A model generated the notes under the pieces. The model had not been told where the DNA came from. It made no database searches and worked only from the letters and a program-made list of their open reading frames with translations. Position numbers and translations under genes: made by a program. From a virus (taxonomy: Duplodnaviria; Heunggongvirae; Uroviricota; Caudoviricetes): a stretch of 64,000 bases of DNA. Below, piece after piece: positions 8,259 to 64,000 of this stretch. The stretch is taken from the IMG/VR virus record IMGVR_UViG_2703718815_000003, one strand, 5' to 3'. Position 1 is the stretch's first letter. Each line of letters starts with the position of its first letter.

Positions 8259-8265
8259 TCGATAG

Positions 8266-11200
8266 TTAGTTACGTTGAGTGTTTGGGTTGAGTGATCCGC
8301 CAGGGCGTTTCTCTTGAGCGATAGTCTCAAGCGCGATTGCTTTCATCCGTTGAGCGGCATTGTTCCATATGCTTTCTGTATCGCCGGATTCAGTTGTGCT
8401 ACCGTCACTATGGACGTTGATCTCAATTGATACCGGAGAAAGAACATTTCCTCCTCCACTCATACCATCGGTACTGAGCGTTACAGGGATTGTTCGACCA
8501 TCAGGCAATGGAACATACGCCTCATTCATATCGCCTTCCCCAAACAACGCCAATTGAGGTGAGTTGGCGATACCGCCTTTCTGGTATGCCCGGAGCGGGA
8601 TCACGCCGTCTTTTCCGAATATGCCACCATTTGCAAAATTCGGAATTGCAGGAATACCATTCGTGCCATCGGCAGCAGAACTGGTCAGATTGTTGAACCC
8701 GGAAGTTGAGCCAGAAGAACCGGACATCAATCCATCGAATCCACCACCAGCCCATACTGAAACCAACCCAGATGCAACTGTCGCGCCGAAATTCAACCAC
8801 TTATTACCAGAGCCGGAAGCATTAGCTCCAAGCATTGCAAACGCGGCAGACAGAGCACCGGTAACAGAGCTGAGGTTCTGCATCGAGAAGATGGAATCCT
8901 TCACTGCTTTTGTCTCAGCATCTTTGGCTTCGGTGCTATCAAATAGCCCTGATACCCAGCTACCAATCGCATTTGTTGCTGTGCCAATTGCGCTGGTGGT
9001 CTGCTGTGTCGTTTGCCCCAATCCAGTTACCGAACTGGACGTCTCCTTCGTGGCTTCTCCTACCGACTTGTCGCCGTTAACAGTGTTGCCCATTCGTACC
9101 CCTTGATTGGCAACGGCGGAAGCAACCCCGGTCAGCAAATTACCACTCTGTGAACTACCAGCTGCGGTGGTTCCCATCCCCAACATGTTCATTAGAGGCA
9201 GCGTGATCTGCGACTTCACGACCATATTGGTGATATCTTTCAAAATGGACTGAGATAGGCTGGAGAAGCTCATCTTCCCGTTAATAACGAAATCAGTCAG
9301 GACATCAGTTAAGCCACTAAACAAATCAGTCCAGGTGCTTTCGATCTGCTCTGCCAGGTTTTCGTATTCCAGTGCCAACTTCTGCGTCGCAGTCCCTGTC
9401 TCTTTAATGAGCGCGGTATTGCCAGCAGCAATAAGTTGATTGATTTTCTTTGTATAAAGCGCCACGACTTTAGGATCAGACGCCTTATCACGAAGTTCTA
9501 TCAACGCTTTGAGATTGCGGTTGTAGGTGTCTTCGAAATCAGCAACTTTCTCTTCGCGAGACGGCGTATAGCCAGCACTAATAATGGAATCCGCCTCCGG
9601 TGCCCAAGTGGAGATCATCTGCTCAACATTGCGGCGATTAAACATCTCGCGATATTCAGGTGTCGCATTTTTGAGGTCTTCAAGACGTTTTTTCGCCTTG
9701 TCGATCATCTCTTGAGTGATGAACTCGTTAGGAACCGCATTAGCCAAATCTGTCAGCGATTTCGTTGTATCGCGAAGAGACTGATCAAACGATACCGTAG
9801 CCTTAGAGCTTTCACCCATTTGCCCCATAAGCTGATCGGCTTTGTCCAGAGCCTTCTGGTATCCGGCTGCCAGTTTCTGTTGCGCTGCCTGTTCCTTCTT
9901 GGCCGCACGCTGCGAGGCGTTAGCTGATCGTTGGGCTGCTTTCTCGGCTGCTGCTGCATCCTGTTCACGAGCTTTAGTCAGTGCGGCAATGGCTGCGGCA
10001 CGCTCTTCATCGCTCATTTTCTCCAGAGAGCTGGCGCTGGATGCTTTCTGCAAATTAAGCTGCGTCTTGAGTTGTTTAGGCCCAATAATCGGCTTACCTT
10101 CGAAGTCCATCATCGGAGTGCCGTCAGGCAAAGTACGTTGATAAGTCGCAGAATCCATCTGGTTTCGCATATATTGCGCCAGCGCCTTCTGAGCTGCTTT
10201 ATCAGTTGTACCTAACCCAAGAACAGTCCCCTGGTTTGACATTACGCCCTTACCAGTTTTGGCCGCGTTATCTCTCTCGAACTCTGCCTGAGTCAGTTCC
10301 TGAGCAACGGTTTCCAAATGCTCCTGATAACCACGAATACTGCCTTGAAGTTTCTGGATCTGCTCGGTATTTCCATCTTTTTTGGCTTTTTCAAGCTGAT
10401 CATTAAGAGTCGCTATTTGCTTCTCGGTCGCATTCTTACGAGAAGAAAGTGAATCAACCAGTTTTTGCGCAGGCTCCAGATAGCTTTTGTTTACCGTTTC
10501 ACGTAACGGTGCCAATAGTTTGTTCTTTTCGTCATCAGAAAGTGAATCGTCATCATTGATTTTTTGGATCTTCTCCAGAGCCTCTTGACGAGCTTTAGCG
10601 AATGTTGCCGCAAAGTCTCTATTCTCTTCCCGTATTTTCTCTATCTGTGATTCTGCCGCATCTTTTGCAAGACGTTTGGCTACAGCAATGTCTCCGCGTT
10701 CAATTGCCCCAGTAGTTTTATCGCGTTTCTTACGAAGGTCATTTAGCTCATTTTCTATACGCTTACGTTCATCCTGATTAATCTTTACTGTAGTTCCGGC
10801 CATACCCGGCCCATAAACCACCTTTTCGCCAGATTTTAACTCTTGTTCCTTTTGCGTGATTTGTTGCTCAAGACGCGCTTTATACTCCGCCATCTGTGCA
10901 CGTTTGGCCGCTGTCATCGCTTCTGGTATTTTCCTAATCTCGTCAACGACCTTTGAAGTTTCGCTGCGGAGCATGGTCATGTACGTGATTAGGCCAGCAA
11001 CAGCTACAGTGGCAACTGTAAATGCTGCCCCTATAGGGTTTGCTGCAATGAACGCCGTTAATCCAGCAAAAGCGCCTTTAAGCCCCGTAATCTCCCCACG
11101 GATGGCGAAAATAAGAGAGGGGATCGGAGCCAGCCCCATACGTGCCGCACGATTGAATCGAGTTACTGCTGTAGCGCCGAGGTTAAATGGAGTCTGTATG

Positions 11201-17979: not shown

Positions 17980-18855
17980 TTAAATTTTTACATTGGTCAG
18001 TGCAGCGATAGCCTTATCGTGCTTATTCGCCAGAGAGCAGTACCACTTCACACGGGTACGTACTGCGTCTTTGTTCTGTACAGTACCAATGTTTTCAACA
18101 ACGATACCTGCGTTGTCGCCGCCATACAGACCAGTAACGCCGTTCTCTTCTGACAGATGCAGGCAGTAGATGCTTGCTTTGCCAGAATCGGTCGGGATGA
18201 AGTCGTTGATGATGAACGGAACGCCGTTATGACACAGCATCGGACGACCGAAGTTCTCCATCATGATTTCAGACGGACCTACGTTTACTGTACGCAGCAG
18301 CGCACGGTAAGCACGCAGGTGCTCTGAACGCATCATGATGCAGTCAGCACCAAGATCTTTCACCGCATCGACCAGTTCGTCGAACATAGAGAAAGTCATA
18401 GATGCACCGGCGATATCGATCTTCTGATCTGCGTGCATCAGGCGTGGAATGCCGTCAAACGCCTTGTTGTTGGAGCTGGAGTCACCCAAAATCAGGTTGC
18501 GACGGAACGCACGAGCCAGACCTTTAACTTTCTGACGAACCTGAATAGCCAACTGGTTATTGGTGTCGGCCATAGTGGTTGCCAGGAATTTATCAACGTC
18601 TACGTCACCAGCCAGAATACGCAGTTTCGCAACGCATTCTTCGAAGGTTGCTGCACCTTCAGGGATGGTGTCGTTAACGTCGATGAAGGTAGCTTCACTC
18701 AGCGTTTTTTCACGGTTGTACAGATATGCCTTTGAATTAATTTTCATAAAAGGCAGGATGGCAAACAGGTCATCGCGATCGATGATAGTTTCGATCACAC
18801 CCTGTTCAAGTTCGTTGTTAGACAGCTTTTCAGCTTCTTCACGCAGTAATGGCAT
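17980..18855 (-). CDS. major capsid protein (candidate)
   Basis: 291 aa, between scaffold and decoration genes, followed by strong terminator. Confidence 0.6.
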   Translation of the reverse strand: MPLLREEAEKLSNNELEQGVIETIIDRDDLFAILPFMKINSKAYLYNREKTLSEATFIDVNDTIPEGAATFEECVAKLRILAGDVDVDKFLATTMADTNNQLAIQVRQKVKGLARAFRRNLILGDSSSNNKAFDGIPRLMHADQKIDIAGASMTFSMFDELVDAVKDLGADCIMMRSEHLRAYRALLRTVNVGPSEIMMENFGRPMLCHNGVPFIINDFIPTDSGKASIYCLHLSEENGVTGLYGGDNAGIVVENIGTVQNKDAVRTRVKWYCSLANKHDKAIAALTNVKI

Positions 18856-18880
18856 CTATCAATTCCCTTTGATTTAGATG

Positions 18881-19768
18881 TTACTTAAGTCCAATTTTCC
18901 CCAGACCGGAGGCCAACTTATCCATAGTCGACTTGTTCTTCGGTTGGGATATTGTGTAGGTCGATTTGGAATGTGAGCCTACACCCTGCTTGGCTTCGCT
19001 ACGCATCAATGCGTCAGCTTCCGGATCTGCCCGCACAATGCGTTCAATCGCGGATTCAAACGGCAACGGCTTACCTTCACCGTCAACCAGAACAGCTCGT
19101 TCTTTGTGACCTGCCGGTTTGTCATAACCCACTACGCTACCGTCTTCACCCACTTCAAAATGAGAACCGTAGATCACGCGGGCTTTTGCCGGGGTCATCA
19201 GAACTTTGTCACGTAGGAAGAGAGAGTTACTGAAGGAAGCGCCCACGGTCATCTCGACTAATTGAGATTTCAGTGATGCGTTTTCACTTTCCAGTGCTGC
19301 ATAACGTTCGTCACGCTGTGCCAGCTCTGCCTGGTGTGCTTCGATCATCTGTTTTTTAACAGCATCGAACTCACCACGACGCTCCAGTTCAGCTTGCTCC
19401 GCCTCACGACGTGCGTTTTCTGCGGCCTGTTCAGCTTCTAAAAGCTGGCGAGCACGAGCCGGATCGATATCACCGTACTGAGCAAGCTGATCGGCCAATG
19501 TGCGCTCTTTCTCTTTGCGCTTCATGTTCTCTTTCAGCAGTTCAGCACCAGCTTTCTTGGTTTTGCGAAGTTCGACCAGTAACTCTTCATGAGTCATGCC
19601 AGCGTATTCGTCATCACCCTTCGGCTGCTCTTTTTGTTCACCCTGTTTGTCAGGATCTTGTGTACTCTGCTCATTATCAGCAGCTACACCGCCAGCGCCT
19701 CCACGCTCATGCGCTTCAGCAACATCCATCAGACCACGACGGGCCAAAAGCATTTGCCACAGTTGCAT
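18881..19768 (-). CDS. scaffolding protein (candidate)
   Basis: 295 aa, highly charged N-terminal coiled coil (EAEQAAENARREAEQAELERR); between portal and capsid. Confidence 0.5.
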   Translation of the reverse strand: MQLWQMLLARRGLMDVAEAHERGGAGGVAADNEQSTQDPDKQGEQKEQPKGDDEYAGMTHEELLVELRKTKKAGAELLKENMKRKEKERTLADQLAQYGDIDPARARQLLEAEQAAENARREAEQAELERRGEFDAVKKQMIEAHQAELAQRDERYAALESENASLKSQLVEMTVGASFSNSLFLRDKVLMTPAKARVIYGSHFEVGEDGSVVGYDKPAGHKERAVLVDGEGKPLPFESAIERIVRADPEADALMRSEAKQGVGSHSKSTYTISQPKNKSTMDKLASGLGKIGLK

Positions 19769-19789
19769 AAAAATTCCCTTTGTTACTTA

Positions 19790-21364
19790 TCACTCGTTCT
19801 CTTGAGTAGATGAGTCCCCATTCCCTCGGGGTTGATCTTGCCCGCTTTCTTGGGCTGCGCCTTGATCATAAGTAAGTACTGACTTATTTTCAAGGGTATT
19901 TAGATCATTTTTTGGCGGAAAATTCAAGAGATCTTTATCAAATTCCTTCTTCATCGCCTCAGTGATGTTCGGGAAAATCTTCTCAATCAGCATTTCCATC
20001 TGGTGACGACGTACAGAGTCCGGTGCCTGAAGTAACGACAGTTTCTCGGCAACAGAAAATTCATCAGTAAGGCCACGAATATCGAAACTTTCTGGATACG
20101 CAATTAATGAGTGGTCTTCGTCCAGATCTACCCCCCTCCATTTCGCAACCAGTTGCATGATTTGACGTTCTGCCCTTTCCAGACGTTCTGCTTTTGTGAC
20201 AAGCAAGCTATTTACACGCTGGAAGTCATACATTTTTGCGGCACCAGATGAATTATCTATTCCCTGTGCGTTGTCCTGCTTCGTTCGCTCACCAGCTACA
20301 CCAACTGAATGGTAGATTTCGTTAATCACCGTTTTAATCGTAGTGATGATCATCTGAGCTTGTTTCGGGTCTGGTGACAGATAAAACGGCTGGTTTCCAC
20401 CTTCAGAATCGTAGGTGAAGACTCGTTTTGTACCCATTTCAAGCACTTTAGTGTGGTTTTCATCGCCAGGTAAAAGCGATTGTACCGGTATGGCCAACTG
20501 GCTAAATGTCTGATCCTGAATAATGGCATCAAGGTTTGAAAGATAGTTTGCAACCGCACGATCCAGATAAGCGATATCATCGATTAACGATGGGCTGAAA
20601 TACGGTGATTCGCTTTCTCCAATACAATCAACAGGAAACACCGGAACTACGCCGAGATTATGCGCACCGCTATCCTCTAAAATAACTTTTGCCTGACGGC
20701 GACCTGCTCCACCAGCGCCCTTCTTCACTTCCTCACGGAACAGATACCACTCGTTTTGTGTCCACAGACGATAACGTTGGTATTCCTGACCTGTAGAAGT
20801 AAAAGGATCTGCGTCATCACGAGCGACTTCCACAATTAACGCCCACAACATATTCCCGTCGTCGTCCCATGCCACATCCAGCATTTGCTGAGGTGAAATC
20901 CAGTAGGCGTAGGCGCGAGCATCTTTCTTTTTCTCGTCAGCTACTGACTCAACATCACCACTCATCGTGCTATCGACAACAACCCATATGCGACCGTAAA
21001 TAGACGACTGCAAATCAATAGCGGCCATAAATGAGTCAATAGAGGCATTCTGGCGGGTCGCACGTTTCCAGAAATTGCGGATCTGCTCTGGAGCCTCTTC
21101 AATATTTCTATGAATGTCTTCTTTAAAGAGATATTTGTTGATGAGGTTTACCACCTCACGAGTGTGGTTGAAGCGATAAGCACGCTCAACTCGCTCCTTA
21201 AACTCCTGATCTCCCTCTTTAAAGTAACGAAAGATATTGTCAGTAAACCAACCACGCCCGCCAGCGTAGGTGCTGGCGAGGAAGTCCCAATGTTCTTTTT
21301 TCTTTTCGTATTCCGGGTGGCGTCGCGCCACCAGATCCTTAATTTGTTTGTCGTTCAATTCCAT
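19790..21364 (-). CDS. portal protein
   Basis: 524 aa immediately downstream of large terminase; acidic C-terminal tail. Confidence 0.75.
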   Translation of the reverse strand: MELNDKQIKDLVARRHPEYEKKKEHWDFLASTYAGGRGWFTDNIFRYFKEGDQEFKERVERAYRFNHTREVVNLINKYLFKEDIHRNIEEAPEQIRNFWKRATRQNASIDSFMAAIDLQSSIYGRIWVVVDSTMSGDVESVADEKKKDARAYAYWISPQQMLDVAWDDDGNMLWALIVEVARDDADPFTSTGQEYQRYRLWTQNEWYLFREEVKKGAGGAGRRQAKVILEDSGAHNLGVVPVFPVDCIGESESPYFSPSLIDDIAYLDRAVANYLSNLDAIIQDQTFSQLAIPVQSLLPGDENHTKVLEMGTKRVFTYDSEGGNQPFYLSPDPKQAQMIITTIKTVINEIYHSVGVAGERTKQDNAQGIDNSSGAAKMYDFQRVNSLLVTKAERLERAERQIMQLVAKWRGVDLDEDHSLIAYPESFDIRGLTDEFSVAEKLSLLQAPDSVRRHQMEMLIEKIFPNITEAMKKEFDKDLLNFPPKNDLNTLENKSVLTYDQGAAQESGQDQPRGNGDSSTQENE

Positions 21365-21390
21365 TTGAATAACCTTAGATAATTACTTAC

Positions 21391-22647
21391 CTACCTAGAG
21401 CCACCAAGAATAACACGGTTTTTGACTGGATACCTACGATGTACTGGATAGCCCAATGCGTCTGCACTATGCTCAATGCCACCTGTCTTATCCATATCTC
21501 GTGTTCCAGGCTTGTAGATGACTTTTTCCAGTGAATCAATCAAATGCTTGCACTTCGGATCGATATACAGCCGGATATCTCCAGATGCGGTCATCAGCAT
21601 TCGGTTAACAGCATTAACACGATCCGCAATTGGCGGGTGCTTTTTCGAATAATCGACACGTAAGAATCCCTTCTCTTTGAATATGTCGACGTCAGACTCC
21701 CCGCGAGCATGTTGGCGATAAGCACCTGCCGGATCTGGAAATACCGTTATCTGTGATTTCCAGCGCCAGAAGCGTCTCTCAAGCTCATCACAAACCTCTG
21801 CCGTGTTAGAGGAAAAGAGCACCAATTCATCAATTGCCCATAGCTCACCATTTGGCTGAGGTTGCAAAATTACTGAAGACATCGGGTCAATGTTGAAGTC
21901 CTGCCCTACCCATATAGGCAACCGAGGGTTGAACTGAAGCGGTTTTACATGCACGTTACGATCGAACGGGTAGTAAACGCGCCCGGACATGTTCTCAAAG
22001 CTCGCCAGGTACTCCTGAGCGAACGATTTGGGGTCCATATCGTTCTTAGCAGCTTCAATTTCCGCCGTAGGTACAAACGGAGAATCGGCAGTTACAAACT
22101 GCCAGCTCTTCCACTGTCCCTTTCTTTGCAGCTCTACGTTCTGGCCTATAGTCCACAGTTTGTGAAATTCCGAGAAGCCTTTTGGCGTACCAATGATCAG
22201 CGCACCGCCGCGTGTCGATGAAAGAGTAGGTCGTAACACCTTGTACCAGGTGTCAGCCTTCATATCCTGAAATTCATCAAGCACTACAAAATGCAACGCT
22301 ACGCCGCGCAGAGTGTCAGGCTTATCAGCACCTTTGAGGGCGATCTCCGAACCGTTCTTCAACACGATTGTCATCGTGGTGTCGTTCTTTTTCCTAACCC
22401 ACTTACGAGGCAGAACTTCCTGTAGATCGTCCCACAAAATCTGGCGAGCCATCTGGTAAGTAGGAGCGACATACCAGACTCTTTGCTTTTTTTCCTTTGC
22501 CGCCGCACGAATAATAGTGGAGATCGACAACCGGGATTTTCCCCAGCGTCGACCAGCACAAACAACTTTAAATCGATGCGGAGACTGGAAGACTTTCATC
22601 TGTCCAGAATGCAGTTGCACAAGACTGAGCGAGGACGGGATTGCCAT
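21391..22647 (-). CDS. terminase large subunit
   Basis: Walker A CAGRRWGKS near N-terminus, Walker B VVLDEFQ, C-terminal nuclease-like region with conserved Asp residues. Confidence 0.85.
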   Translation of the reverse strand: MAIPSSLSLVQLHSGQMKVFQSPHRFKVVCAGRRWGKSRLSISTIIRAAAKEKKQRVWYVAPTYQMARQILWDDLQEVLPRKWVRKKNDTTMTIVLKNGSEIALKGADKPDTLRGVALHFVVLDEFQDMKADTWYKVLRPTLSSTRGGALIIGTPKGFSEFHKLWTIGQNVELQRKGQWKSWQFVTADSPFVPTAEIEAAKNDMDPKSFAQEYLASFENMSGRVYYPFDRNVHVKPLQFNPRLPIWVGQDFNIDPMSSVILQPQPNGELWAIDELVLFSSNTAEVCDELERRFWRWKSQITVFPDPAGAYRQHARGESDVDIFKEKGFLRVDYSKKHPPIADRVNAVNRMLMTASGDIRLYIDPKCKHLIDSLEKVIYKPGTRDMDKTGGIEHSADALGYPVHRRYPVKNRVILGGSR

Positions 22648-24642: not shown

Positions 24643-25304
24643 GAATGGACCTCATCATGACTACCATTGTGATATTCCACCTTCACGCGTTCTTTGTAGT
24701 GCTTGGTGATCTGCATATCCGGGCGCAGCGCGTTCTTCAGGTCTTCGTGAGTCGTCGCCACCATTACCGTCGCACCAACCTTTCGAGCGGCACGCTGGAG
24801 GTTAGATGCCACAACCTGAGCGGTTACACGGTCGAGAACAGCGCCGAACTCGTCAGCAGCCCACACTTTAGCGCCTGACTCAATCAGTTTGGCAATCTTG
24901 AGACGATATTTCTGACCGTCTGACATTTCAGAAGGCTTGCGAACAAACAGATATGCATCGTTCAGACCAGCCATAGATAACAACCCAAGCGCATCACTGG
25001 TAGTTTTGCCCAGTTGGTCAATGACGTTAACCTCATTATCGAAGGTAAAATCATCGATGGAGGCCACAGATAGCCCTTCATCCTTCATCTGGTGTTGCAG
25101 CTCGCGCAGCACAACGGATTTGCCGGAACCGGATTGGCCGGTAATGTACACCACATCGCCCTGCTTCACTTCCAGCTCCAGATTGTCGTAAAGCGTCCAC
25201 TCTTTTTCGTCCAGGCCAAGCCCGAACGACTCAGCGATTTCCAACGTGCGCGTGGTTTTATTTACGCGTGTCTGAAACGATACGTTGATGATGTATTTGC
25301 TCAT
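24639..25304 (-). CDS. ABC-type P-loop ATPase (stand-alone nucleotide-binding domain)
   Basis: Walker A GQSGSGKS, signature-like SDGQKYRL, Walker B VWAADEFGAVLD; 221 aa with no transmembrane partner nearby. Confidence 0.6.
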   Translation of the reverse strand: MSKYIINVSFQTRVNKTTRTLEIAESFGLGLDEKEWTLYDNLELEVKQGDVVYITGQSGSGKSVVLRELQHQMKDEGLSVASIDDFTFDNEVNVIDQLGKTTSDALGLLSMAGLNDAYLFVRKPSEMSDGQKYRLKIAKLIESGAKVWAADEFGAVLDRVTAQVVASNLQRAARKVGATVMVATTHEDLKNALRPDMQITKHYKERVKVEYHNGSHDEVHS

Positions 25305-25969
25305 GCAGCCATCTCCCCGGAAGAGATCTTCTCCGCATATGCCACAAATGCGTCTACCCCGCTTTCTCCCGTCATTTCTTCCATGTGGGCAAGCAAATCA
25401 CCAACAACAATGGCAGAGCCAGCAGGGAGCGTTTTAAAGCCCAATACGTCGACAACACGTACTTCTTCCGCTGCAACTTCACGACTGATCTCGGTGTGTT
25501 CATCCTTCTGTCGTTTAGTTTCTTCGCCAAGATCGATAACTAGCGAGTCGGTGTCCATTTCTTCTGTCATGCTGCCAACGAGAACATTCAACTCACGCTC
25601 TTCAAAGCCGAAAACCTCGATATCGTCCAGAACAAGCGACTCAAGCTCTTTCTGTAGCTTAATTGCATCGTAATCAATGCTGGCAAGTCGGTTATCTTCA
25701 AGGCGCTTCGCACGAATCTCGTCATCACTGAGATCATCGCGAACAATAACCGGTACGCGCTCAAGTCCAGCAAAAATTGCAGCCTCACGGCGGCCGTGGC
25801 CAGTAATAATTACGTCGTTCTTATCGACCGTAATTGGCTGGTCAAATCCGCGCTTTTTAATGGCTGCGGCTAGATCTCGGATCTGCTGTTCATCATGCTT
25901 TTTGGCATTCATCTCATAGGGAATAAGATCTGCCGGGTCGCGATATACGATTTCAAACTTTTTGGTCAT
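25301..25969 (-). CDS. ParB/Srx-fold (ParB N-terminal domain) protein 1
   Basis: GHGRREAA matches ParB box II (GERRxRA); start ATG 25967-25969 overlaps upstream stop (TAATG). Confidence 0.7.
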   Translation of the reverse strand: MTKKFEIVYRDPADLIPYEMNAKKHDEQQIRDLAAAIKKRGFDQPITVDKNDVIITGHGRREAAIFAGLERVPVIVRDDLSDDEIRAKRLEDNRLASIDYDAIKLQKELESLVLDDIEVFGFEERELNVLVGSMTEEMDTDSLVIDLGEETKRQKDEHTEISREVAAEEVRVVDVLGFKTLPAGSAIVVGDLLAHMEEMTGESGVDAFVAYAEKISSGEMAA

Positions 25970-26649
25970 TACATACGCTCCTTGTAGTAGTCGACCAGCC
26001 ACACCAGAGCCTCACCAGCGTTCTCCATTTCATTACCGGTGTTAATAGCCTGCTCTTTGATGATGTTTTTTATGGTTTCTGCAACGCGATCTGACGCATC
26101 GAAAGTTACTTTGAAGCGCATGGTCTGATGTTCCGCCCCCACACGTTCGGTTTTCTCTCGTTTGTCGGTATCGACAGGCTCATCACTACCACGAGACAAC
26201 GCCTCCAGTGCTTCAAGGTCGATTGCCGCCTCTTTTGCTATAACCATCGAGATTTCGTCGTCATACGGGGCGATTTCAGACAGTTGATAGTCAAGTTCTG
26301 ACTGAATTTCTTCAATGAAGCGTTGCAATGCGATTTGGTCGTCTTCACCGTATCGCTCGTTGTCCACCAGTGACATCTGTTTAGCTACGACATCGCTAAT
26401 TTTGCCCACAGAAAGCACTGGAACCGTTGAAATTCCTTGCTCAATAGCGGCACGCCAGCGATGTTCGCCGCCGAGGATTTCAAAAAATCCATCTTCAAGT
26501 TCACGAGCCAAAATTGGCTTAAAAAAGCCCAATTTTTCGATAGAACCTTTCAGTTTTTCAAAATTCTGCGCACCAACCGAATTGGTGTTCCAGGTATTCG
26601 GGCGAAGGTTGGCAACATCAACCTGCAAAATCGTGATTTTTACATCCAT
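25969..26649 (-). CDS. ParB/Srx-fold (ParB N-terminal domain) protein 2
   Basis: LGGEHRWRAA matches ParB box II; first ATG at 26647-26649 (track start is GTG). Confidence 0.7.
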   Translation of the reverse strand: MDVKITILQVDVANLRPNTWNTNSVGAQNFEKLKGSIEKLGFFKPILARELEDGFFEILGGEHRWRAAIEQGISTVPVLSVGKISDVVAKQMSLVDNERYGEDDQIALQRFIEEIQSELDYQLSEIAPYDDEISMVIAKEAAIDLEALEALSRGSDEPVDTDKREKTERVGAEHQTMRFKVTFDASDRVAETIKNIIKEQAINTGNEMENAGEALVWLVDYYKERM

Positions 26650-42006: not shown

Positions 42007-42396
42007 CTACATCACGGGACAATCATCAAACTCGCCACTTCTTGCGTCGTTGATAATGTGAGTGATCACACCAAACACGGCATTGCTGCCCGTGCATCCA
42101 TCGTCATCCTTTGGCAATGCTTCCTTCTTACCGGTTCTTAAATCCTCCAGATGCTGACGTGGGTACTTCCGGTATCTTTTTACGCGATATTCCCCATCCA
42201 GAGCGCATACAAGCAGAGAACCATCAACCGGGGTAAGTGAGGAATCGACCACCAGCAATGCACCCTGTAATATTCCCTCACGATGATGACTATCAGCTGC
42301 CCTCATGAAGTAGGTCGCTGAAGGATGTCTAATTATCTGCTGATCAAGAGAAATACGGCTCTCAGCATAATCCGCCGCAGGAGAAGGGAAGCCCAT
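42007..42396 (-). CDS. UmuD'-like S24 peptidase-fold protein (pre-truncated UmuD homologue)
   Basis: Starts MGFPSPAADYAE...HPSATYF, i.e. at the UmuD segment after the RecA-cleavage site; Ser (AADSH) and Lys (VKRYRK) positions retained; no umuC partner; AGAGG RBS. Confidence 0.75.
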   Translation of the reverse strand: MGFPSPAADYAESRISLDQQIIRHPSATYFMRAADSHHREGILQGALLVVDSSLTPVDGSLLVCALDGEYRVKRYRKYPRQHLEDLRTGKKEALPKDDDGCTGSNAVFGVITHIINDARSGEFDDCPVM

Positions 42397-42412
42397 AATA
42401 CTCGCCTCTTAA

Positions 42413-42432
42413 TACTGTATACACATACAGTA
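42413..42432. promoter_or_regulatory. LexA (SOS) box
   Basis: TACTGTATACACATACAGTA, perfect CTGT-N8-ACAG, about 17 bp upstream of UmuD'-like start. Confidence 0.75.
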
Positions 42433-56532: not shown

Positions 56533-57090
56533 TTACACAATTTCAGAGGGTAATTTAAAAAATCCGTACTTATTACGTGCCTTAAAGAAGCATTGCATCA
56601 TTAAGTTTGTGTCATATAAGGCACTATGTGCTTTGGCATGATCGTATATAAAGCCAAGAGAGAAGGCCAACTCTTCAAGGCGGGGACGTTTACCGTCTTC
56701 TGTGGCCCACAATCCCGATAACATAGTATCTATAACAGGAACTTCTGGCAGTCTTACTCCATACCCTGAAAACTCGTGTCGAATAAATGGTATATCAAAT
56801 GCTTCGCCGTTATGAGCAACCCACACACTACATGCCCCCATATAAGCGCCAATTTCGCTGGCATGATTTGACAACAAAGGTTCAGCTGCGAGCTGTTCCA
56901 ATGAAATGCCATGAACGGCTTGAGCTTTCGGATCTATGTTTCTGCGAGGGTTAAAACGCATCTCCAGACTATCAATATGTCTCTGTGTCTCCAGTTCATA
57001 GCGGGTAATTGCGATTTCAATAATTTTATGACCAGCAAGGAAATCCAGTCCCGTAGACTCGATATCGATGCCTGCAACAATCGTTGTCAT
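56533..57090 (-). CDS. DnaQ-like 3'-5' exonuclease (DEDDh)
   Basis: Exo I DIESTG, Exo II HNGEAFD, Exo III H....YD. Confidence 0.75.
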   Translation of the reverse strand: MTTIVAGIDIESTGLDFLAGHKIIEIAITRYELETQRHIDSLEMRFNPRRNIDPKAQAVHGISLEQLAAEPLLSNHASEIGAYMGACSVWVAHNGEAFDIPFIRHEFSGYGVRLPEVPVIDTMLSGLWATEDGKRPRLEELAFSLGFIYDHAKAHSALYDTNLMMQCFFKARNKYGFFKLPSEIV

Positions 57091-57099
57091 CAGAACTCC

Positions 57100-57519
57100 T
57101 TACAACTTCTTAGCGCCCTTAAGTAGTGCGCTACGTACAAATTGAGCCGCTTTTTTCAAAGTTTCTTCACTGGTTTCACAGACAATCGGATCTTTCCACT
57201 TACCTGACACAGTGTTGAGAATATTGATTTGGTTGCTATCCAGACAAACAGAGATATAAAGCACCGTGCCACCAGCCAGCATCAAATGCATAGGAAACAG
57301 AGGCTTTTTACTGCCTTCACTGAACTGAGACATGGCGATGTTAATGGCTTCACCCACTTGTGTACCAACAAGCCCCTGCGCAGTTTCGAATATGGCACGA
57401 ATAGCCAGACGAGCCTCTCGATCGCTCATAAGCGACCGGGAATGTTCGTCCGCTACACGAATCAAAGCCTCTGTTGTTTTCCGATCCAGTTCATCTTCAA
57501 GCAACATTTCACTAAACAT
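57100..57519 (-). CDS. hypothetical protein
   Basis: 139-aa ORF. Confidence 0.5.
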   Translation of the reverse strand: MFSEMLLEDELDRKTTEALIRVADEHSRSLMSDREARLAIRAIFETAQGLVGTQVGEAINIAMSQFSEGSKKPLFPMHLMLAGGTVLYISVCLDSNQINILNTVSGKWKDPIVCETSEETLKKAAQFVRSALLKGAKKL

Positions 57520-57580
57520 TTTTTATCCTTAACCCATTTTGAGAGTTTTATTGTCGCAATGTCGAAGAGGCGAACAATTT

Positions 57581-58225
57581 CTAATGAACGGTCACTCGGC
57601 CACAGAACCGGTTTTCTATCTTTTCTACAGCGTTATCTAGCATTCTCATCACTGATCTGGCTCTTGCTTCAACCGTGCGATATCGGTTGGAAACGACGAA
57701 GGTTTGCAGATCTCCCCTTTGCGGATGCAGGTGAATTTTTGTCAGTTCCCCGCACATCAACGCATCAATACGAGCGACATACAGACGGTCTAATGATGCT
57801 CGTTGTGATCGCAAGTAATCTCGCTCTGAGAGAGCGACTCCCGGGCGTAAGCCAGCAATGGCGTTAAAGTTTGAAATAGCAGTTTTGTGGCAAAACTTTT
57901 CGATATCGAGGGCTAACTCAATACACCGATCTTCATTTGTATGGCCGACCAAATCCAACGTGTAGGCCATAACATCAGCAGGTGTGCGATCGATAACAAA
58001 GCCTTCAACACCACGCGTAAGTAGCTCTATATGCTTTGCTATTTCCATTTGAATCTGAAGCCGCTCATATAGAGGCATAGAATCACCTACTCGAACACCG
58101 AGGCGGCTCATCAAACTTCCGACACCAGCATCCACGTAAGGGATTCCGTAATGTTTGTCGATATATTTAGCCAGGGTTGTTTTCCCACTGCCCTGAGCAC
58201 CAGTGATCCCAATCCGGTAATCCAT
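57581..58225 (-). CDS. P-loop kinase (candidate dNMP/nucleoside kinase)
   Basis: Walker A GAQGSGKTT near N-terminus; location in nucleotide-metabolism module. Confidence 0.55.
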   Translation of the reverse strand: MDYRIGITGAQGSGKTTLAKYIDKHYGIPYVDAGVGSLMSRLGVRVGDSMPLYERLQIQMEIAKHIELLTRGVEGFVIDRTPADVMAYTLDLVGHTNEDRCIELALDIEKFCHKTAISNFNAIAGLRPGVALSERDYLRSQRASLDRLYVARIDALMCGELTKIHLHPQRGDLQTFVVSNRYRTVEARARSVMRMLDNAVEKIENRFCGRVTVH

Positions 58226-58701
58226 TACGACCTTCTGTATACGATCTGCGAAAAGCCAGGCTCTTCCTCGCTGGCTCGTTGGGTATAAGCTGTTTCAACA
58301 GGCACAAAGCCTAAATTACGCATCATGCTTGCCGGGAAGAATGCATCGGCGTTTGGCACATCAACGCCGATGTGGGAGAGCCAAATCTCTTCAACATGCG
58401 GCATGAATAGCGAGTAAATTTGTTCCCCGCCAATCACCCACACAGGCTCTGGTAATCGCAACACATCATCCACACCAGCAGGGTAGAATCCATTTGGTAC
58501 AAAGCCATGAGAGCGCGTCAAAACGAGGTTATGACGCTCTGGAAGAGGGCGTTTGAGACTTTCCATCGTTTTACGCCCCATAACGACAGTGGCGTTTTTG
58601 GTGAGTCTCTTAAATAGCTTCAGATCGGTAGAACAACGCCAGGGGAGTTCATTCGCTATGCCGATCTCATAGTTACGGCCAACAGCAGCGATCATCTTCA
58701 T
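58225..58701 (-). CDS. frd: dihydrofolate reductase
   Basis: MKMIAAVGRNYEIGIANELPW N-terminus and VVMGRKT, VIGG motifs; 158 aa. Confidence 0.85.
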   Translation of the reverse strand: MKMIAAVGRNYEIGIANELPWRCSTDLKLFKRLTKNATVVMGRKTMESLKRPLPERHNLVLTRSHGFVPNGFYPAGVDDVLRLPEPVWVIGGEQIYSLFMPHVEEIWLSHIGVDVPNADAFFPASMMRNLGFVPVETAYTQRASEEEPGFSQIVYRRS

Positions 58702-59111
58702 TTGCTCACCTCATAGATGACCGGTCGATGGTGAGAGTCGGCTAAAGCGGCACGGAGTCGAGGATCGTGCACCAGCGCAGCGATAAGCAGATCGCCTTTA
58801 TGCTCCGCTAATGTGCGCTTAATATGCTTCTCATAACTGGTGCCATTCGGTACGAGATGAAGCCAGTCATAATCAACGCCAAAATCTTTCAGCCATCGTT
58901 TAGTTGGCGCTTCAAGAGTTTCAGAGCGGCTACTGATAAGCACCACTTCAGCCCCTGAGCGAGCAAAACCACGCAACATACGGCTGGTGGGGAAAATGAG
59001 TTCATCACCGGCAATGAGCTGGCCTGCATCCGCGTCAGATACTGATTTACGATGGCTGGCATTTGCCAGCACACCTTCAATTTCGCATAAGACATACATA
59101 CCTCTTGCCAT
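58698..59111 (-). CDS. hypothetical protein (possible nucleotidase/phosphatase)
   Basis: Function guessed only from position between thymidylate synthase and DHFR; start uncertain. Confidence 0.35.
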   Translation of the reverse strand: MARGMYVLCEIEGVLANASHRKSVSDADAGQLIAGDELIFPTSRMLRGFARSGAEVVLISSRSETLEAPTKRWLKDFGVDYDWLHLVPNGTSYEKHIKRTLAEHKGDLLIAALVHDPRLRAALADSHHRPVIYEVSK

Positions 59112-59112
59112 A

Positions 59113-60243
59113 TCACACCGCCACTGGAACCTTGATCCACGATAGAGGGTCATAGCCAAGAATTAAAACCTCGTCCCATTTGAAATCATCCAACTCTGAC
59201 CATTCATGAGGGAAAATAACGACCGGATCTGAATGCTCTGGAGCCTGTCGTTTCATTAGCTCACACACACCTTCCATGTGGTTGTTGTACAAATGCACGT
59301 CAAAGCCAAAATGCACAAATGCACCGGCCATGTGACCCGTAATCTTCGCGAGAAAATGAGTGAGAATGCCATAGCCAGCAATATTGAATGGCATACCAAC
59401 AAAAGTGTCTACGCTACGCTGTACGAGGCAGGAGTTGAGGATGCGTTTGGGGATTCCAAGTTCATCCAGTTCAGCTTCAGTAACACTGCCGTCCATCTCC
59501 AGATCGTATAGCATCTTGGTGTAGATAGACTCGTAACCGAGGCGACTGTGTTGAAGACCAATGTCAGTTGCCATCGTTAAACGGGTTTCAAAATCCAGCT
59601 CACGACTCCACAAAGAGAAGACAAAGTGGCAAGGTGGCAGTTTCATATCCTCAAGCTCGCCTACGTTCCATGCGTTAAGCATGATGCGACGATCGGTAGG
59701 GTTCGTGCGCAGTGTATCGACAATACGCTGTAGCTGATCGATTTCACGGGACAGCACTACGCGATCTTCACTGATACCCAGGTATCCCTCGACTTTGTAC
59801 CCGCGTTCACGGAAAGTAGCGATCTTGCTCAGATATTCACTATGGCTCACGATGCGGGTATCTTCCCATCGACGCCACTGCTTACCGTAAACCGGCCCCA
59901 AATCGCCATTCTCATCGGCCCATGCATCCCAAATCTTAACGCCGTTATCCTTGAGAAATTGGATGTTGCCCGTGCCTTTCAGATACCACTCAAGTTCGAC
60001 AAGCAGTGGCTTAAGATTTACCGCCTTTCCAGAAATAAGCGGCACAGTCCCACCAGTAAGCATGTAGTAAGAGGGAACGTAGCAGGTGCTTAAAGTACCA
60101 GTGCCTGTGCGATCATCAGCCTGCACGCCGCTTTTAAGCACCGTCTCAATAACTTTTGCATACGATGCGTTTGTTACCTGACCGTTCGTATGCTCACGAT
60201 TCAAAAGGAGTGACACAAAAACCTCACAAAGATAAGTAACCAC
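59113..60243 (-). CDS. thyA: thymidylate synthase (ThyA family, with insertions)
   Basis: DRTGTGT, GDLGPVYGKQWR, LPPCH active-site motif; track start is GTG, true start may be GTG at 60216 (GAGG upstream). Confidence 0.9.
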   Translation of the reverse strand: MVTYLCEVFVSLLLNREHTNGQVTNASYAKVIETVLKSGVQADDRTGTGTLSTCYVPSYYMLTGGTVPLISGKAVNLKPLLVELEWYLKGTGNIQFLKDNGVKIWDAWADENGDLGPVYGKQWRRWEDTRIVSHSEYLSKIATFRERGYKVEGYLGISEDRVVLSREIDQLQRIVDTLRTNPTDRRIMLNAWNVGELEDMKLPPCHFVFSLWSRELDFETRLTMATDIGLQHSRLGYESIYTKMLYDLEMDGSVTEAELDELGIPKRILNSCLVQRSVDTFVGMPFNIAGYGILTHFLAKITGHMAGAFVHFGFDVHLYNNHMEGVCELMKRQAPEHSDPVVIFPHEWSELDDFKWDEVLILGYDPLSWIKVPVAV

Positions 60244-60386
60244 TTATTAATTACGTGAGTTTACATTTATTGAGAGAACAAGACCAGACAGATAAAAAAA
60301 TGGTGGCCATAGGCCACCAAAACGAATAGTCATTCCAGAGTTTTATTACGCATGTTAAATATACACAGATAGATAACTACCTACAA

Positions 60387-61259
60387 TTATTTTTTGATCA
60401 TTCCGTACATTGCTGAGGCTTTAGCTTGCTCAACAAAGGAGGATAAATCGACATCACTATAGGTTGGAGACTTCAGAATCTTTCCATCGGAAATTCGAAA
60501 ACCGATCATCTTATCGGTGCCATCAGCATGGCGGAATCCCAGATCTGAAGAGTCGTATTTGCAGTTGGCCACAGCCTGGCGACGTTCCTCAACATCAGCA
60601 GGCCATAATTTTGTCATGTTAGACCGATGAATTTCGCCAACCAGCTCGACGACATTGATACCGAGGAAATCAGCCAGTCGATAAGTCATCATGCACGCCA
60701 CATAGATTTTGTTCATTACACGGCGCAGTTCCTGAATCAGCTCAGAATCCTTAACAGTCTTCTTCTCAAGTTTATCTGCCAGCTCTTCGAGCATACATGA
60801 CGCCTCACGAGCTTCCTGAAATGGCATTGCCATATCATCGAAAACAGTGTTACCGGGCACAAAAATTGTCTGCATAAAGCGATCAATGCTCTGTTCCTGC
60901 GTGTAATAGGTCATGCCGGTAGAAATACCACCTTTGATGGAGACCATCGTACCAACACCAACGTATAAAAAGTCGGCCATTGCATCCAGCAGTTGCTCAA
61001 TATCCCCATTCATTGCGGCTGGAATACCTTCCACTACAGCTTCTTCATGAATCAGGCTTGCACGGAGACGAAGCAGCTCTGGTGTCGGCATAACGCGTCT
61101 CGGATGCTGGAAGAGTTCATGAAACTGATCGACCATCTTGTAAATACTTTCAGTGGCTACACCATGGCCTTCATGCAACTCATATGGTTCTGGCTTAAAT
61201 CCAATGAGTCGATCGGTGGCAAGTTTCAGGTGGTCAGTCAGTTTGGTAAAGTTCATGCT
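60387..61259 (-). CDS. all-alpha NTP pyrophosphohydrolase-like protein (MazG/dimeric dUTPase-like, candidate)
   Basis: Two helical segments with E..EE...D/E patterns (LIHEEAVVEG..IEQLLDAMAD; VELVGEIHRSN); start set to MNFTK ATG at 61259. Confidence 0.4.
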   Translation of the reverse strand, partial: SMNFTKLTDHLKLATDRLIGFKPEPYELHEGHGVATESIYKMVDQFHELFQHPRRVMPTPELLRLRASLIHEEAVVEGIPAAMNGDIEQLLDAMADFLYVGVGTMVSIKGGISTGMTYYTQEQSIDRFMQTIFVPGNTVFDDMAMPFQEAREASCMLEELADKLEKKTVKDSELIQELRRVMNKIYVACMMTYRLADFLGINVVELVGEIHRSNMTKLWPADVEERRQAVANCKYDSSDLGFRHADGTDKMIGFRISDGKILKSPTYSDVDLSSFVEQAKASAMYGMIKK

Positions 61260-61333
61260 AGTTTTGTTCCTTCTTAATTCTTGTGATCCATTGTGGCCCA
61301 GCGTTGCCAGGCCACATAATGCTTTGTATCGGT

Positions 61334-62476
61334 TTACAGGTCTGCAAACTGGCTTAGAGAAGCCTTGTCCACGGTAGAATCGATCTGACCTACCAGATAT
61401 GTGCTTTGCTCTGCCTCTTGTGGTGCAATTTGCAGTGTGTCGGTTAACAACCACTTGTTCATCCAGACCAGCGGATCTGTGGTAACTTCTGGAAATAAAG
61501 CCTTCAGGCCAAGACGATTCATAGCCAGATTGGTGCGGTATTTTACATAGGTCTTCAGAATATCCGCGTTTAAACCAATCATCGAACCGTCTTTGAAGAG
61601 ATAGTCTGCCCAGTTCATTTCTTGTTCGGCGACTGATTTCATGGTGTCGTAAATGACGTTTTCTTCATCAGCAGCAATCTCTTTCCACAATAAACCTTCG
61701 CGACCGGTACGCATGAAGCGGATCATGCGTTCAGTTCCTTCGCAATGCAGAGCTTCATCACGGGCAATAAAGCGCATAATTTTGGTGTTACCCTCAAGCA
61801 ACTTCCGTTCGCCAAAGGCAAACGTACATGCAAAACTTACATAGAAACGGATCGCCTCAAGCGCATTAATGGACACCAACGTGCGGAAAAGCTGACGGTG
61901 CAAAGGGTATGGCTCCCAGCCATATTCATTTACGTACAGACGTTCAAACTCTTTCTCACCTAACGACTGGCGCTCGCAGGTCATCCCATAAAGCCTGTCA
62001 TATTCAGCAGAGATACTGATCGCTCGGTTGATGATTTCTTCATCCGTAACAATACCGTCAAAAACAATGCTCGGATCGTCCACCATGCCACGAATAATGT
62101 GGGTGTAGCTGCGGCTATGGATAGTCTCAGAGAAAGACCATGTTTCAACCCACGTTTCCAGTTCAGGAATAGAGATAAGCGGCAGCAGCGTTGCATTTGG
62201 GCTACGTCCCTGAACTGAATCGAGTAACGTTTGATAACGGAGATTGCTCAGAAAAATGTGACGTTCGTGGTCCCGCAGCTTCGTGTTGAAGTCGATACGA
62301 TCGCTCGAAATATCAACTTCTTCCGGCCGCCAGAAGAAAGACAATTGACGTTCAATCAACTTTTCAAAATCACGGTATTTTTGCTGATCGTAACGTGCCA
62401 CGTTGACAGATTGTCCGAGGAACATAGGCTCTTTGGTTGCATCATTAGCACCCAAACGGAACGTTGAATATGACAT
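61334..62476 (-). CDS. nrdB: ribonucleotide reductase small subunit
   Basis: Class Ia R2 features (FFWRPEEVD, iron-ligand E/H pairs); diverged from host type. Confidence 0.9.
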
Positions 62477-62489
62477 GTGTTTTTCCTTT

Positions 62490-62540
62490 TTCTTTTTTGG
62501 TGCGTTTAAACAAGTTGTTATCTTATGTGTTTAAACAAGG
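62490..62540 (-). promoter_or_regulatory. early promoter/operator motif upstream of nrdB
   Basis: Minus-sense taagataacaacttgtttaaacgcacc about 25 nt upstream of nrdB ATG. Confidence 0.45.
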
Positions 62541-62557
62541 CTTACAAATCAAAGAGA

Positions 62558-62576
62558 AGGTGGGGATATCCCCCAC
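62558..62576 (-). terminator. intrinsic terminator after nrdA
   Basis: ggtgggg atatc ccccacc followed by T-rich ttctctttgattt on minus strand. Confidence 0.55.
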
Positions 62577-62582
62577 CATATG

Positions 62583-64000
62583 TCAGATTTTGCAGGCTCC
62601 GTCGCACTCATCTTCTGGCTCGACGGCTACAGCTTGCGTCAGTGGATTATGCGGTTCGTCGTCATCACGCTTTCCTGCCCCATCTCTGGTGTTGTGGTAG
62701 TAAAGCGTTTTAACTCCCATCTTGTAGGCGAGAAGCAAATCTGACAGTAGCGTCATCATTGGGACTTTATCGCCTTCAAAGCGAGAAGGGTCATAGTTGG
62801 TATTGGCTGAAATAGCCTGGTCAAAGAACTTCTGGATGATCGCCACCTTTGTCAGATAGCCGCGGTTGTCCGGCATATCCCACAGGTATTCATACTGTTC
62901 CTTCAGTTTTTCAAACTCAGGCACGACCATCTTAACGATGCCGTCCTTAGAAGATTTCACCGACACCAGGCCACGAGGCGGTTCGATGCCGTTGGTGGAA
63001 TTAGTGATCTGGCTGGAAGTCTCGCATGGCATTTGTGCCGTCAGTGTGGAGTTGCGAAGGCCGTATTTTGCAATACGTTCACGCAGTTCTTCCCACGGCA
63101 TCTTTAACTCAAAGTTGGTTTCGCCACTTTCGTCTAATGAAGAACGGTAATGGTCGATCGGCAACTGACCAATTGCGTACTTGGTCTGCTCAAACCAGTC
63201 ACACTCACCTTTTGCTTCAGCAAGTCGGCAGCTGGCATCAAGAAGGTAATACTGGATAGCTTCGAACGTTTCATGCACCAGTTTATTGCCAGCGGTATCA
63301 GAATAACGAACGCCATTCTTTGCCAGGTAATAAGCAAAGTTGGTTACACCAATTCCCAAGCTACGACGAGCTTTGGCAGGCACTTCGGCTGCCTCCATCG
63401 GATAGTCTTGATAATCCAGTAACGAATCCAGTGCAGCAACGGCATAGAACGCCACCTCTTTAAGAGACTCCAGTGAACGGATGGCTCCGAGGTTAAAAGC
63501 GGATAAAGTGCATAGCGCGATCTCACCGTTCGGGTCGTCGGTAAATGCCAGTGGACGAGTGGGTAGAGTGATCTCCATGCACAGGTTTGACTGGCGAACA
63601 GGTGCAAGAGCAGGAATGAAAGCGCCATGCTCGTTAATATGATCTACGTTCGCAATATAAATTCGGCCCGTGGACGCTCGTTCCTGCATCAGAGATGAGA
63701 ACAGCTCAATGGCAGGTACTGACTTCTTGCGAATTGAATCATCGGCTTCGTATTTATGGTACAGCTTTTCAAACAGCTCCTGGTCTGTGAAGAAGGCTTC
63801 GTACATATCAGGCACATCATGCGGGCTGAACAGAGTGATGTTCTCGCTTCTGACGAGTCGACGGTACATTAGACGGTTACTCATGACGCCGTAATCAAGA
63901 TGGCGAACGCGGTTTTCATCAATACCACGGTTATTTTTCACCACCAGCAGACTTTCAACTTCAAGATGCCAGATCGGGTAAAACGCTGTTGCTGCGCCAC
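62583..64000 (-). CDS. nrdA: ribonucleotide reductase large subunit, C-terminal part (gene continues beyond window end)
   Basis: Class Ia R1 motifs (NLCMEI, CTLSAFNLG, PCETSSQ, C-terminal CDGACKI); frame stays open to the window edge. Confidence 0.9.
   Translation of the reverse strand, partial: GAATAFYPIWHLEVESLLVVKNNRGIDENRVRHLDYGVMSNRLMYRRLVRSENITLFSPHDVPDMYEAFFTDQELFEKLYHKYEADDSIRKKSVPAIELFSSLMQERASTGRIYIANVDHINEHGAFIPALAPVRQSNLCMEITLPTRPLAFTDDPNGEIALCTLSAFNLGAIRSLESLKEVAFYAVAALDSLLDYQDYPMEAAEVPAKARRSLGIGVTNFAYYLAKNGVRYSDTAGNKLVHETFEAIQYYLLDASCRLAEAKGECDWFEQTKYAIGQLPIDHYRSSLDESGETNFELKMPWEELRERIAKYGLRNSTLTAQMPCETSSQITNSTNGIEPPRGLVSVKSSKDGIVKMVVPEFEKLKEQYEYLWDMPDNRGYLTKVAIIQKFFDQAISANTNYDPSRFEGDKVPMMTLLSDLLLAYKMGVKTLYYHNTRDGAGKRDDDEPHNPLTQAVAVEPEDECDGACKI

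Follow-up and report, generated by a model that had tools for sequence, protein, structure and literature searches.

What kind of element keeps a set of genes for deoxynucleotide synthesis beside a lambda-like tail and plasmid-like functions? The question is raised by positions 56533 to 64000 of a 64,000-nucleotide stretch of tailed-phage DNA (IMG/VR record IMGVR_UViG_2703718815_000003), the whole of which is called the window here. The block at 56533-64000 consists of nine genes, all on the minus strand and separated by short or overlapping junctions. A reading of the letters alone, referred to below as the original prediction, had proposed a large element of the phage-plasmid type. Our analysis indicates that the window is very probably part of an SSU5/pHCM2-type phage-plasmid from the Escherichia coli lineage of Cyrano (pLF82) and pECOH89-like plasmids, that is, a temperate siphovirus whose tail is of the lambda type and which persists in lysogeny as a low-copy circular IncFIB-type plasmid, and that 56533-64000 is its conserved deoxynucleotide-supply block.

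Comparison with phage genomes and plasmids carries this assignment. The entire window was colinear, at 94-99.6%, with positions 41697-104859 of pCTX (NZ_CP047004), a pECOH89-like E. coli plasmid of the IncFIB type that is circular and 112 kb long, from which it differs in three short segments (28576-29853, 37434-38217, and 45237-46740 of the window). The nucleotide identity of the block was 99.6% to pCTX, 99.1% to Escherichia phage Cyrano, 98.3-98.8% to the phages CMS-2020a and PhiR41_1, and, over 100% of the query, only 75.5% to Salmonella phage SSU5, with which the S. Typhi plasmid pHCM2 is grouped. SSU5 has all nine genes, with unchanged order and lengths and an amino acid identity of 72-90%, and it also shares the lambda-type tail, the pair of ParB N-terminal-domain (ParB_N) proteins, the ABC-like ATPases, the helicase neighborhood, and a dispersed palindrome described below. 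In Cyrano (OV696614), the dihydrofolate reductase (DHFR) and NrdB proteins are identical to those of the window, the other block proteins differ at 0-6 residues, and the humD-apbC-metG arrangement is the same. In PLSDB, 685 plasmids matched the block (best match, 99.6%), 671 of them predicted to be non-mobilizable; the matching plasmids are circular, of the IncFIB type and ~106-121 kb long, and come from Klebsiella, Escherichia, Enterobacter, Salmonella, Citrobacter, and other genera. Among complete E. coli genomes, the block was present in 233 of 5426 (~4%), and 241 of its 243 places were on plasmids and 2 on the chromosome. By gene-repertoire relatedness and synteny, the window falls within the SSU5_pHCM2 group, of which pCTX is a typed member.

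The pCTX annotation gives the shared part a tail fiber and lambda-type tail, head and terminase genes, the ParB_N pair, ABC-like ATPases, a helicase, many small open reading frames (ORFs), metG-apbC, an S24 peptidase gene, a Dam methylase, and the nucleotide block. The part of pCTX beyond the window encodes RepA (repA, positions 1-1056, flanked by iterons of the ATCCACTATAGAGAG type at 21-bp spacing), a ParA-like ATPase (an AAA ATPase at 35126-35794, the counterpart of the ParA-like SSU5_033), an integrase, DnaE, a DnaB-like helicase, a ligase, and GrxA. The element is therefore already known, as a run-of-the-mill representative of a phage-plasmid group that is well described, and its identification turns an apparently odd mosaic into routine annotation. 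Some novelty remains, limited to a promoter/operator cassette and to the proposed silence of a resistance-type DHFR gene, which are treated below.

These matches also bear on the possibility that the window comes from a strictly virulent large phage of the T4, T5, or jumbo type, whose lifestyle the nucleotide genes would reflect. Large virulent phages (T4 with nrdAB-td-frd-gene 1, T5, and jumbo phages) have the same repertoire of ribonucleotide reductase (RNR), thymidylate synthase (TS), DHFR, nucleotide kinase, and NTP pyrophosphohydrolase. RNR, ThyA, and DHFR genes are found in thousands of them, NrdB homologues occur in at least 5000 phage records, and the expanded fold of the ThyA protein is nearest to jumbo-phage TS. 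However, the DNA matched only SSU5-type phages and plasmids of ~110 kb, and beyond the SSU5 group the nearest phage NrdB was at most ~50% identical. The window contains humD under LexA control, its relatives carry repA, parA, and an integrase, and Cyrano is a stable episome. The carrier here is a temperate plasmid prophage. The LexA-controlled UmuD'-like gene of the original prediction was confirmed: the protein scores within the HumD family and starts at the post-cleavage Gly (MGFPSPAADY), and 16 nt upstream of the humD ATG there is a LexA box close to the consensus, TACTGTATGTGTATACAGTA. Best matches confined to strictly virulent phages were not seen; the opposite was found, with IncFIB plasmids, Cyrano, CMS-2020a, PhiR41_1, and SSU5 as the closest relatives, and the proposal of a large phage-plasmid was borne out. 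We give a strictly virulent phage practically no chance; judged by sequence, the phage, PLSDB, and E. coli genome matches already refute it.

For the biology of the group, we rely on the literature. The SSU5 supergroup forms the largest collection of phage-plasmids that are related to one another, mostly IncFIB and predicted to be siphoviruses, and SSU5 was isolated as an infectious phage (Pfeifer et al., PMC7969092). Cyrano is plasmid pLF82 of the adherent-invasive E. coli (AIEC) strain LF82, with 5.5 copies per chromosome. Its virions were reported as DNase-protected genomes 32-fold above contamination by quantitative PCR (qPCR), a matching siphovirus with a 259-nm tail was seen by transmission electron microscopy (TEM), and the element was induced 39-fold by ciprofloxacin and 3-fold by trimethoprim (PMC9928086). 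SSU5-type phage-plasmids are common in clinical Enterobacterales and can carry extended-spectrum beta-lactamase (ESBL) genes, such as blaCTX-M-55 on pCTX.

Could the window nevertheless belong to a phage-derived cryptic plasmid without virions, as was long assumed for pHCM2, with the block kept for plasmid replication or host benefit? Lysis, replication, and repressor genes lie beyond the window, and for many members of the group there are plasmid records only. However, the structural module of a siphovirus is complete in the window (terminase, portal, capsid, tape measure, and lambda-type tail tip). The ORFs for the tail (J, K, L, and M), capsid, portal, and terminase are intact and as long as in pCTX, and that for the tape measure differs by only a few codons from the length of 1,525 amino acids reported for Cyrano. 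In addition, Cyrano, which is 99% identical in the block, makes particles and is inducible, and SSU5 is infectious. We consider a particle-free plasmid unlikely. The lambda-like tail of the original prediction was confirmed by Pfam matches to gpJ, gpK, gpL, and gpM homologues and to a tape-measure protein that carries the lambda C-terminal domain.

Two other plasmid-like features named in the original prediction, ParB-like proteins and iterons, fared less well. There are two adjacent proteins with a ParB domain, but each matched only the N-terminal domain (PF02195), and they lie beside the terminase genes, which makes them poor evidence for plasmid partition. A role as partition ParB was rejected, as no helix-turn-helix (HTH) centromere-binding domain was detected and the genes downstream of the pair are those for two ABC-like ATPases and the terminase; the ParA-like gene of the relatives is located elsewhere on the element, away from the pair. 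In PHROGs and PADLOC, the pair is related to ParB-methyltransferase fusions and nucleases, among others. Tandem- and direct-repeat scans of the whole window found no iteron array, so the claim of iterons in this stretch does not stand; the repeats present are dispersed palindromes beside promoters, and these are probably what was taken for iterons. Both features are weak arguments, and the phage-plasmid conclusion is independent of them. Separately, the four-gene cluster at 23752-26649 (minus strand), directly upstream of the terminase, consists of the two ParB_N proteins, an ABC-type ATPase, and a 296-amino-acid protein resembling an ABC ATPase subunit. It is common to SSU5 and Cyrano and may serve to package or modify DNA. 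When the ParB_N, ABC, helicase, and DUF4942 neighbors were scanned with PADLOC, only generic methyltransferase, helicase, and ATPase similarities emerged, and no defense system.

The window also contains two host-type genes, metG (38678-40840, minus strand) and apbC/mrp (40869-41969, plus strand), which are divergent as on the E. coli chromosome. Together with the integrase carried by the relatives, they could be taken to mark chromosomal DNA, that is, an integrated prophage or genomic island. However, phage-plasmid genes lie on either side of metG-apbC, in the arrangement found in the plasmids and in Cyrano, and the identity of the pair is ~90-91% to the E. coli chromosomal copy, compared to 95-99% to 216 E. 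coli plasmid copies. With the block chromosomal in only 2 of 243 places, we regard chromosomal integration as very unlikely. The Cyrano homologue of apbC, CYRAN_99, is annotated as "MinD" but is an ApbC/Mrp homologue and was reported to be expressed in lysogeny. None of metG, apbC, and humD is annotated in SSU5, and pCTX has an ISKox3 insertion next to humD that the window lacks.

Profile searches backed every gene that had been named in the block, but two genes had been overlooked, the unassigned gene at 57100-57519 and the HAD-like gene at 58698-59111 (Table 1). The product of the former had no match in Pfam and NCBIfam profile searches. At the upstream end of the block, the window includes the C-terminal 471 of ~771 codons of nrdA, which runs past the window end; the gene is 2316 nt long in pCTX, Cyrano, and SSU5. 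The NrdA fragment and NrdB each score above the NCBIfam equivalog cut-off for their class Ia subunit, which places them in class Ia NrdAB. The identity of NrdB is 60% to its E. coli counterpart but no more than ~50% to the NrdB of T4-like phages; judged from these values, the RNR appears to have been acquired long ago from an enterobacterial host. An origin from T4-like phages was rejected, since E. coli NrdB is nearer.

Table 1. Features of the nucleotide block and of the rest of the window, with the matches that support them
Feature	Position	Strand	Support or remark
nrdA, class Ia RNR alpha subunit, 3' part	62583..64000	-	PF02867, 356 bits; NF006578, 817.7 bits (cut-off 813)
G+C-rich hairpin, terminator-like or attenuating, just 3' of nrdA stop	62559..62577	-	equivalent hairpin in SSU5
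17-bp palindrome GATAACAA-C-TTGTTTAA (transcribed strand), ~30 nt upstream of nrdB ATG	62506..62522	.	member of the dispersed family
nrdB, class Ia RNR beta subunit	61334..62476	-	NF006576, 609 bits (cut-off 346)
MazG/DR2231-like all-alpha NTP pyrophosphohydrolase, 289 aa	60387..61256	-	PF01503 (PRA-PH), 35.3 bits (cut-off 21.3); phrog_671 "nucleotide pyrophosphohydrolase," 9e-48
Strong intrinsic terminator, TGGTGGCCTATGGCCACCA then T7, between MazG-like gene and thyA	60301..60319	-	
thyA, 367 aa, two insertions	59113..60216	-	PF00303, 262 bits
HAD/PNKP-phosphatase-like protein, 137 aa	58698..59111	-	PF25109, 23.3 bits (below cut-off 27.6); phrog_415, 1.7e-8
DfrA51-type DHFR	58225..58701	-	PF00186, 119 bits; NF047324, 338.2 bits (cut-off 322)
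P-loop nucleoside/nucleotide-kinase-fold protein, 214 aa	57581..58225	-	AAA_28, 38.8 bits; phrog_2107 "thymidylate kinase," 4.8e-10
139-aa protein, conserved in SSU5 (72% identity)	57100..57519	-	phrog_5373 only
DEDDh 3'-5' exonuclease, DnaQ/RNase T family, 185 aa	56533..57090	-	PF00929 (RNase_T), 79 bits; phrog_192 "DNA polymerase exonuclease subunit," 4e-51
Lambda-type tail tip and tape measure: gpJ, gpI-like, gpK, gpL, gpM, tape-measure protein	991..12837	-	PF09327, PF24801, PF00877+PF14464, PF05100, PF05939, PF09718
Major capsid protein, portal, large terminase	17980..22647	-	Pfam and pCTX annotation; ORF lengths equal those of relatives
Two adjacent ParB N-terminal-domain proteins (25301-25969 and 25969-26649)	25301..26649	-	PF02195, 35 and 50 bits
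humD (UmuD'-like; gene 42007-42396, LexA box 42413-42432)	42007..42432	-	NF051876, 219.8 bits (cut-off 120)
Palindrome centers, ~15 window sites	23326, 23351, 28313, 33323, 33808, 34558, 35461, 35945, 37096, 38536, 38587, 47023, 51563, 52292, 62514		just upstream of minus-strand genes

The TS with insertions named in the original prediction is real, as seen both in the alignment to TS structures and in an AlphaFold2 (AF2) model. Against bacterial TS structures, the protein aligned in three blocks, with insertions at about residues 119-156 and 205-260. The catalytic Cys196, Arg176/177, Arg267, Ser268, Asp270, Asn278, His308, and Tyr310 do not vary among the aligned proteins, and the pyrimidine-specificity position is Asn rather than Asp; the enzyme is of the ThyA type. 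Both insertions are also present in ThyA proteins of 356-378 amino acids from Escherichia, Salmonella, Klebsiella, Enterobacter, Raoultella, Morganella, Providencia, and Xenorhabdus, for which the contigs listed are ~100-120 kb, and in some more distant metagenomic proteins. The AF2 model had a predicted local distance difference test (pLDDT) score of 91.8 with both insertions confidently folded, and its best viral structural matches were the expanded TS of jumbo phages, such as 201phi2-1 (query-normalized template modeling [TM] score, TMq, 0.82-0.86), on whose models the insertions superpose. Because the insertions fold confidently and the jumbo-phage enzymes are nearest, the model indicates that they mark a phage-type TS variant and are neither damage nor an intein. 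In the public Cyrano record, CYRAN_72 is labeled "ThyX," yet the protein is of the ThyA type (PF00303).

Several observations weigh against reading the window as a phage-plasmid with a block for deoxynucleotide supply. The window itself lacks a replication origin, repA, and genes for partition and lysis; this copy is judged to be a plasmid from its near-identity to relatives. The others concern four of the smaller block proteins. The MazG-like protein has EExxE and DxxAD motifs and a PRA-PH domain of the MazG type, with an internal insertion of ~75 amino acids, but its match to the Deinococcus MazG-like NTP pyrophosphohydrolase DR2231 was weak and in two segments (E ~0.002). This likeness suggests, but does not prove, hydrolysis of dUTP that would feed ThyA. 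The longest ORF of this gene begins at an upstream GTG overlapping nrdB, whereas all annotated relatives start at an internal ATG (MNFTKL). The HAD-like protein resembles the phosphatase domain of polynucleotide kinase-phosphatases (PNKP; Pnkp1 structure 4xrp, E 1.9e-5), but its motif I is ExE (CEIEGVL) and not DxD, with Glu at both catalytic Asp positions and the identical motif in SSU5. From this motif, the protein may not be a phosphatase and may be inactive or altered in activity.

The kinase-fold protein and the exonuclease are similarly limited in what can be assigned. The AF2 model of the former (pLDDT 87.8) supports a nucleoside/nucleotide kinase fold, and its top Foldseek matches were human thymidylate kinase (TMPK), Mycoplasma mycoides deoxyadenosine kinase (dAK), and Drosophila deoxynucleoside kinase (dNK), with TM scores of 0.55-0.65. 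However, TMPK, dNK, adenylate kinase, and NadR-type proteins all matched at similar scores (TM 0.5-0.65), and a sequence search of the PDB matched the P-loop alone. A role as a dTMP or dNMP kinase is our best guess because of translational coupling to the DHFR gene, whose stop codon overlaps the kinase start (ATGA). For full-length homologues, the longest contigs listed were mostly ~100-113 kb. The exonuclease has the motifs DIESTG, NGEAFD, and HSALYD but fell below all DNA polymerase III (Pol III) epsilon equivalog cut-offs (best, 71 bits versus 196). Only the 185-amino-acid DEDDh domain is present; membership in the DnaQ epsilon equivalog, including the C-terminal alpha-binding segment, was not found. 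By its sequence, the protein belongs to the RNase_T/DnaQ superfamily at that level only.

Taken as a pathway, the block could work as follows. After SOS-linked induction, the element would replicate with its own replisome, as DnaE, a DnaB-like helicase, primase, and ligase are encoded beyond the window, and the DEDDh exonuclease would be the likely proofreader for its DnaE. NrdAB would convert NDPs to dNDPs, with a glutaredoxin gene elsewhere on the element. The MazG/DR2231-like enzyme probably hydrolyzes dUTP or other non-canonical NTPs, which would yield dUMP and keep uracil out of DNA; the expanded ThyA would then methylate dUMP to dTMP, and the DfrA51-type DHFR would regenerate tetrahydrofolate. 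The kinase-fold protein probably phosphorylates dTMP, other d(N)MPs, or deoxynucleosides. Transcription would involve at least three units, one ending with nrdA, one of nrdB and the mazG-like gene, and one from thyA through the exonuclease gene, with the hairpin 3' of nrdA and the strong terminator 3' of the MazG-like gene as putative borders. The nrdB gene would have its own sigma70-like promoter with a dispersed 17-bp palindromic operator.

The timing of expression can be approached through the DHFR, which is 90.5% identical to SSU5 DfrA51 and carries A6, I13, D26, and S48, the residues named in PMC12217456; it is a member of the DfrA51 family. One reading is that the block is mainly cargo for lysogenic conversion, giving trimethoprim resistance through DfrA51, and not a function for lytic replication. 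The DHFR does pass the NCBIfam DfrA51 cut-off, and SSU5 dfrA51 expressed from pET21b or pACYC184 gave trimethoprim MICs of 256-512 mg/L (PMC12217456; MIC, minimum inhibitory concentration). In contrast, strain LF82, with the identical DHFR on Cyrano at ~5.5 copies, has a reported trimethoprim MIC of 0.125 µg/ml and is susceptible. None of CYRAN_69-77, the module genes, is in the list of Cyrano genes expressed in lysogeny (PMC9928086). The dfr gene is also located inside a translationally coupled unit from thyA to the kinase gene that is syntenic across the group, with no integron or cassette flanked by insertion sequences (IS). Resistance cargo is thus quite unlikely as an explanation of the block. 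Because CYRAN_69-77 are unlisted and the MIC of LF82 is low, we argue instead that the deoxynucleotide-supply block is a lytic-phase function that would be silent in lysogeny. Current pipelines will flag this DHFR as the resistance gene dfrA51, and calls of resistance from genotype only may be wrong, since LF82, which has the identical protein, is fully susceptible to trimethoprim.

A candidate basis for such regulation was found in a dispersed 17-bp palindrome, GAAAACAA-N-TTGTTTTC, the right half-site of which can also be written TTGTTTAa or TTGTTT(T/A)(C/A). It has 21 matches in the window compared to 0.27 expected, is the only short repeat family there, and has 19 sites in SSU5 compared to 0.1 expected. 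The copy in the nrdA-nrdB spacer is kept in SSU5 although the DNA is only ~75% identical. SSU5 sites also precede terS-like, parA-like, and dnaB-like genes. When the 21 sites were aligned by transcription direction, a cassette of ~60 nt emerged, consisting of a -35-like TTGAC, gCCTTtT, a -10 GATAAT, tAACACCAACAA, and the palindrome, followed by 10-25 nt that contain a Shine-Dalgarno (SD) sequence and then ATG. At some promoters, a second palindrome lies over the -35 region. An RNA hairpin is an unlikely reading, as the arms are one base apart and the half-sites are conserved in sequence and do not covary. Searches for tRNAs and structured RNAs in the window by ARAGORN and by Rfam at gathering thresholds gave zero matches. 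A standard sigma70 promoter scan of the block was uninformative (4 matches versus 12.5 in shuffled sequence).

Most simply, the cassette would be a family of sigma70-type promoters with a shared operator just downstream of the start site. More tentatively, and with somewhat more doubt than confidence, we propose that it represents an undescribed central regulatory circuit of SSU5-type phage-plasmids, in which one DNA-binding protein encoded by the element would act over most transcription units, including the genes for dNTP supply. As a corollary, the gene for DfrA51, which is at present listed among resistance genes, may be phenotypically silent in lysogens. A CYRAN_45-type repressor and the FljA-like protein encoded at 30450-30974 are candidates for the common regulator. 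No description of the palindrome or of the SSU5/pHCM2 nucleotide block was found in the searchable literature, in a search that was far from exhaustive. The cassette offers a handle for studying the switch between plasmid and phage life. The FljA-like protein is full length (annotated "repressor of phase-1 flagellin"; PF03614, E 9e-81), is encoded on the plus strand, opposite most genes, and is conserved as SSU5_121; it could affect host flagellin or regulate the element.

A functional parallel is offered by another plasmid prophage, P1, the archetype of phage-plasmids. HumD is known as a P1 gene, and in both elements a LexA box precedes a homologue of UmuD' that is already truncated. The C1 operators of P1 are scattered around its genome, and the dispersed palindrome may be analogous to them if it is a common operator. 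Cyrano is also annotated with TciA/TciB-like proteins. Unlike the element described here, P1 is a myovirus, lacks the RNR/ThyA/DHFR block, and shares no DNA similarity with the window, so that the parallel is functional only.

Some minor features of the window lie outside these systems. The gpJ-like tail tip gene (991-5718) contains four tandem repeats of 99 nt (33 codons) at 1978-2373, which are 62-72% identical to the first copy. The 28576-29853 segment, which is not in pCTX, is AT rich (GC ~0.37), and its ORFs at 28605-29204 and 29350-29838 matched only PHROGs of unknown function. The 1.5-kb segment at 45237-46740, likewise absent from pCTX, encodes a 121-amino-acid protein (45563-45928) that matched the ClpX C4 zinc finger only (PF06689, residues 79-114), as well as an Ead/Ea22-like protein (45888-46490).

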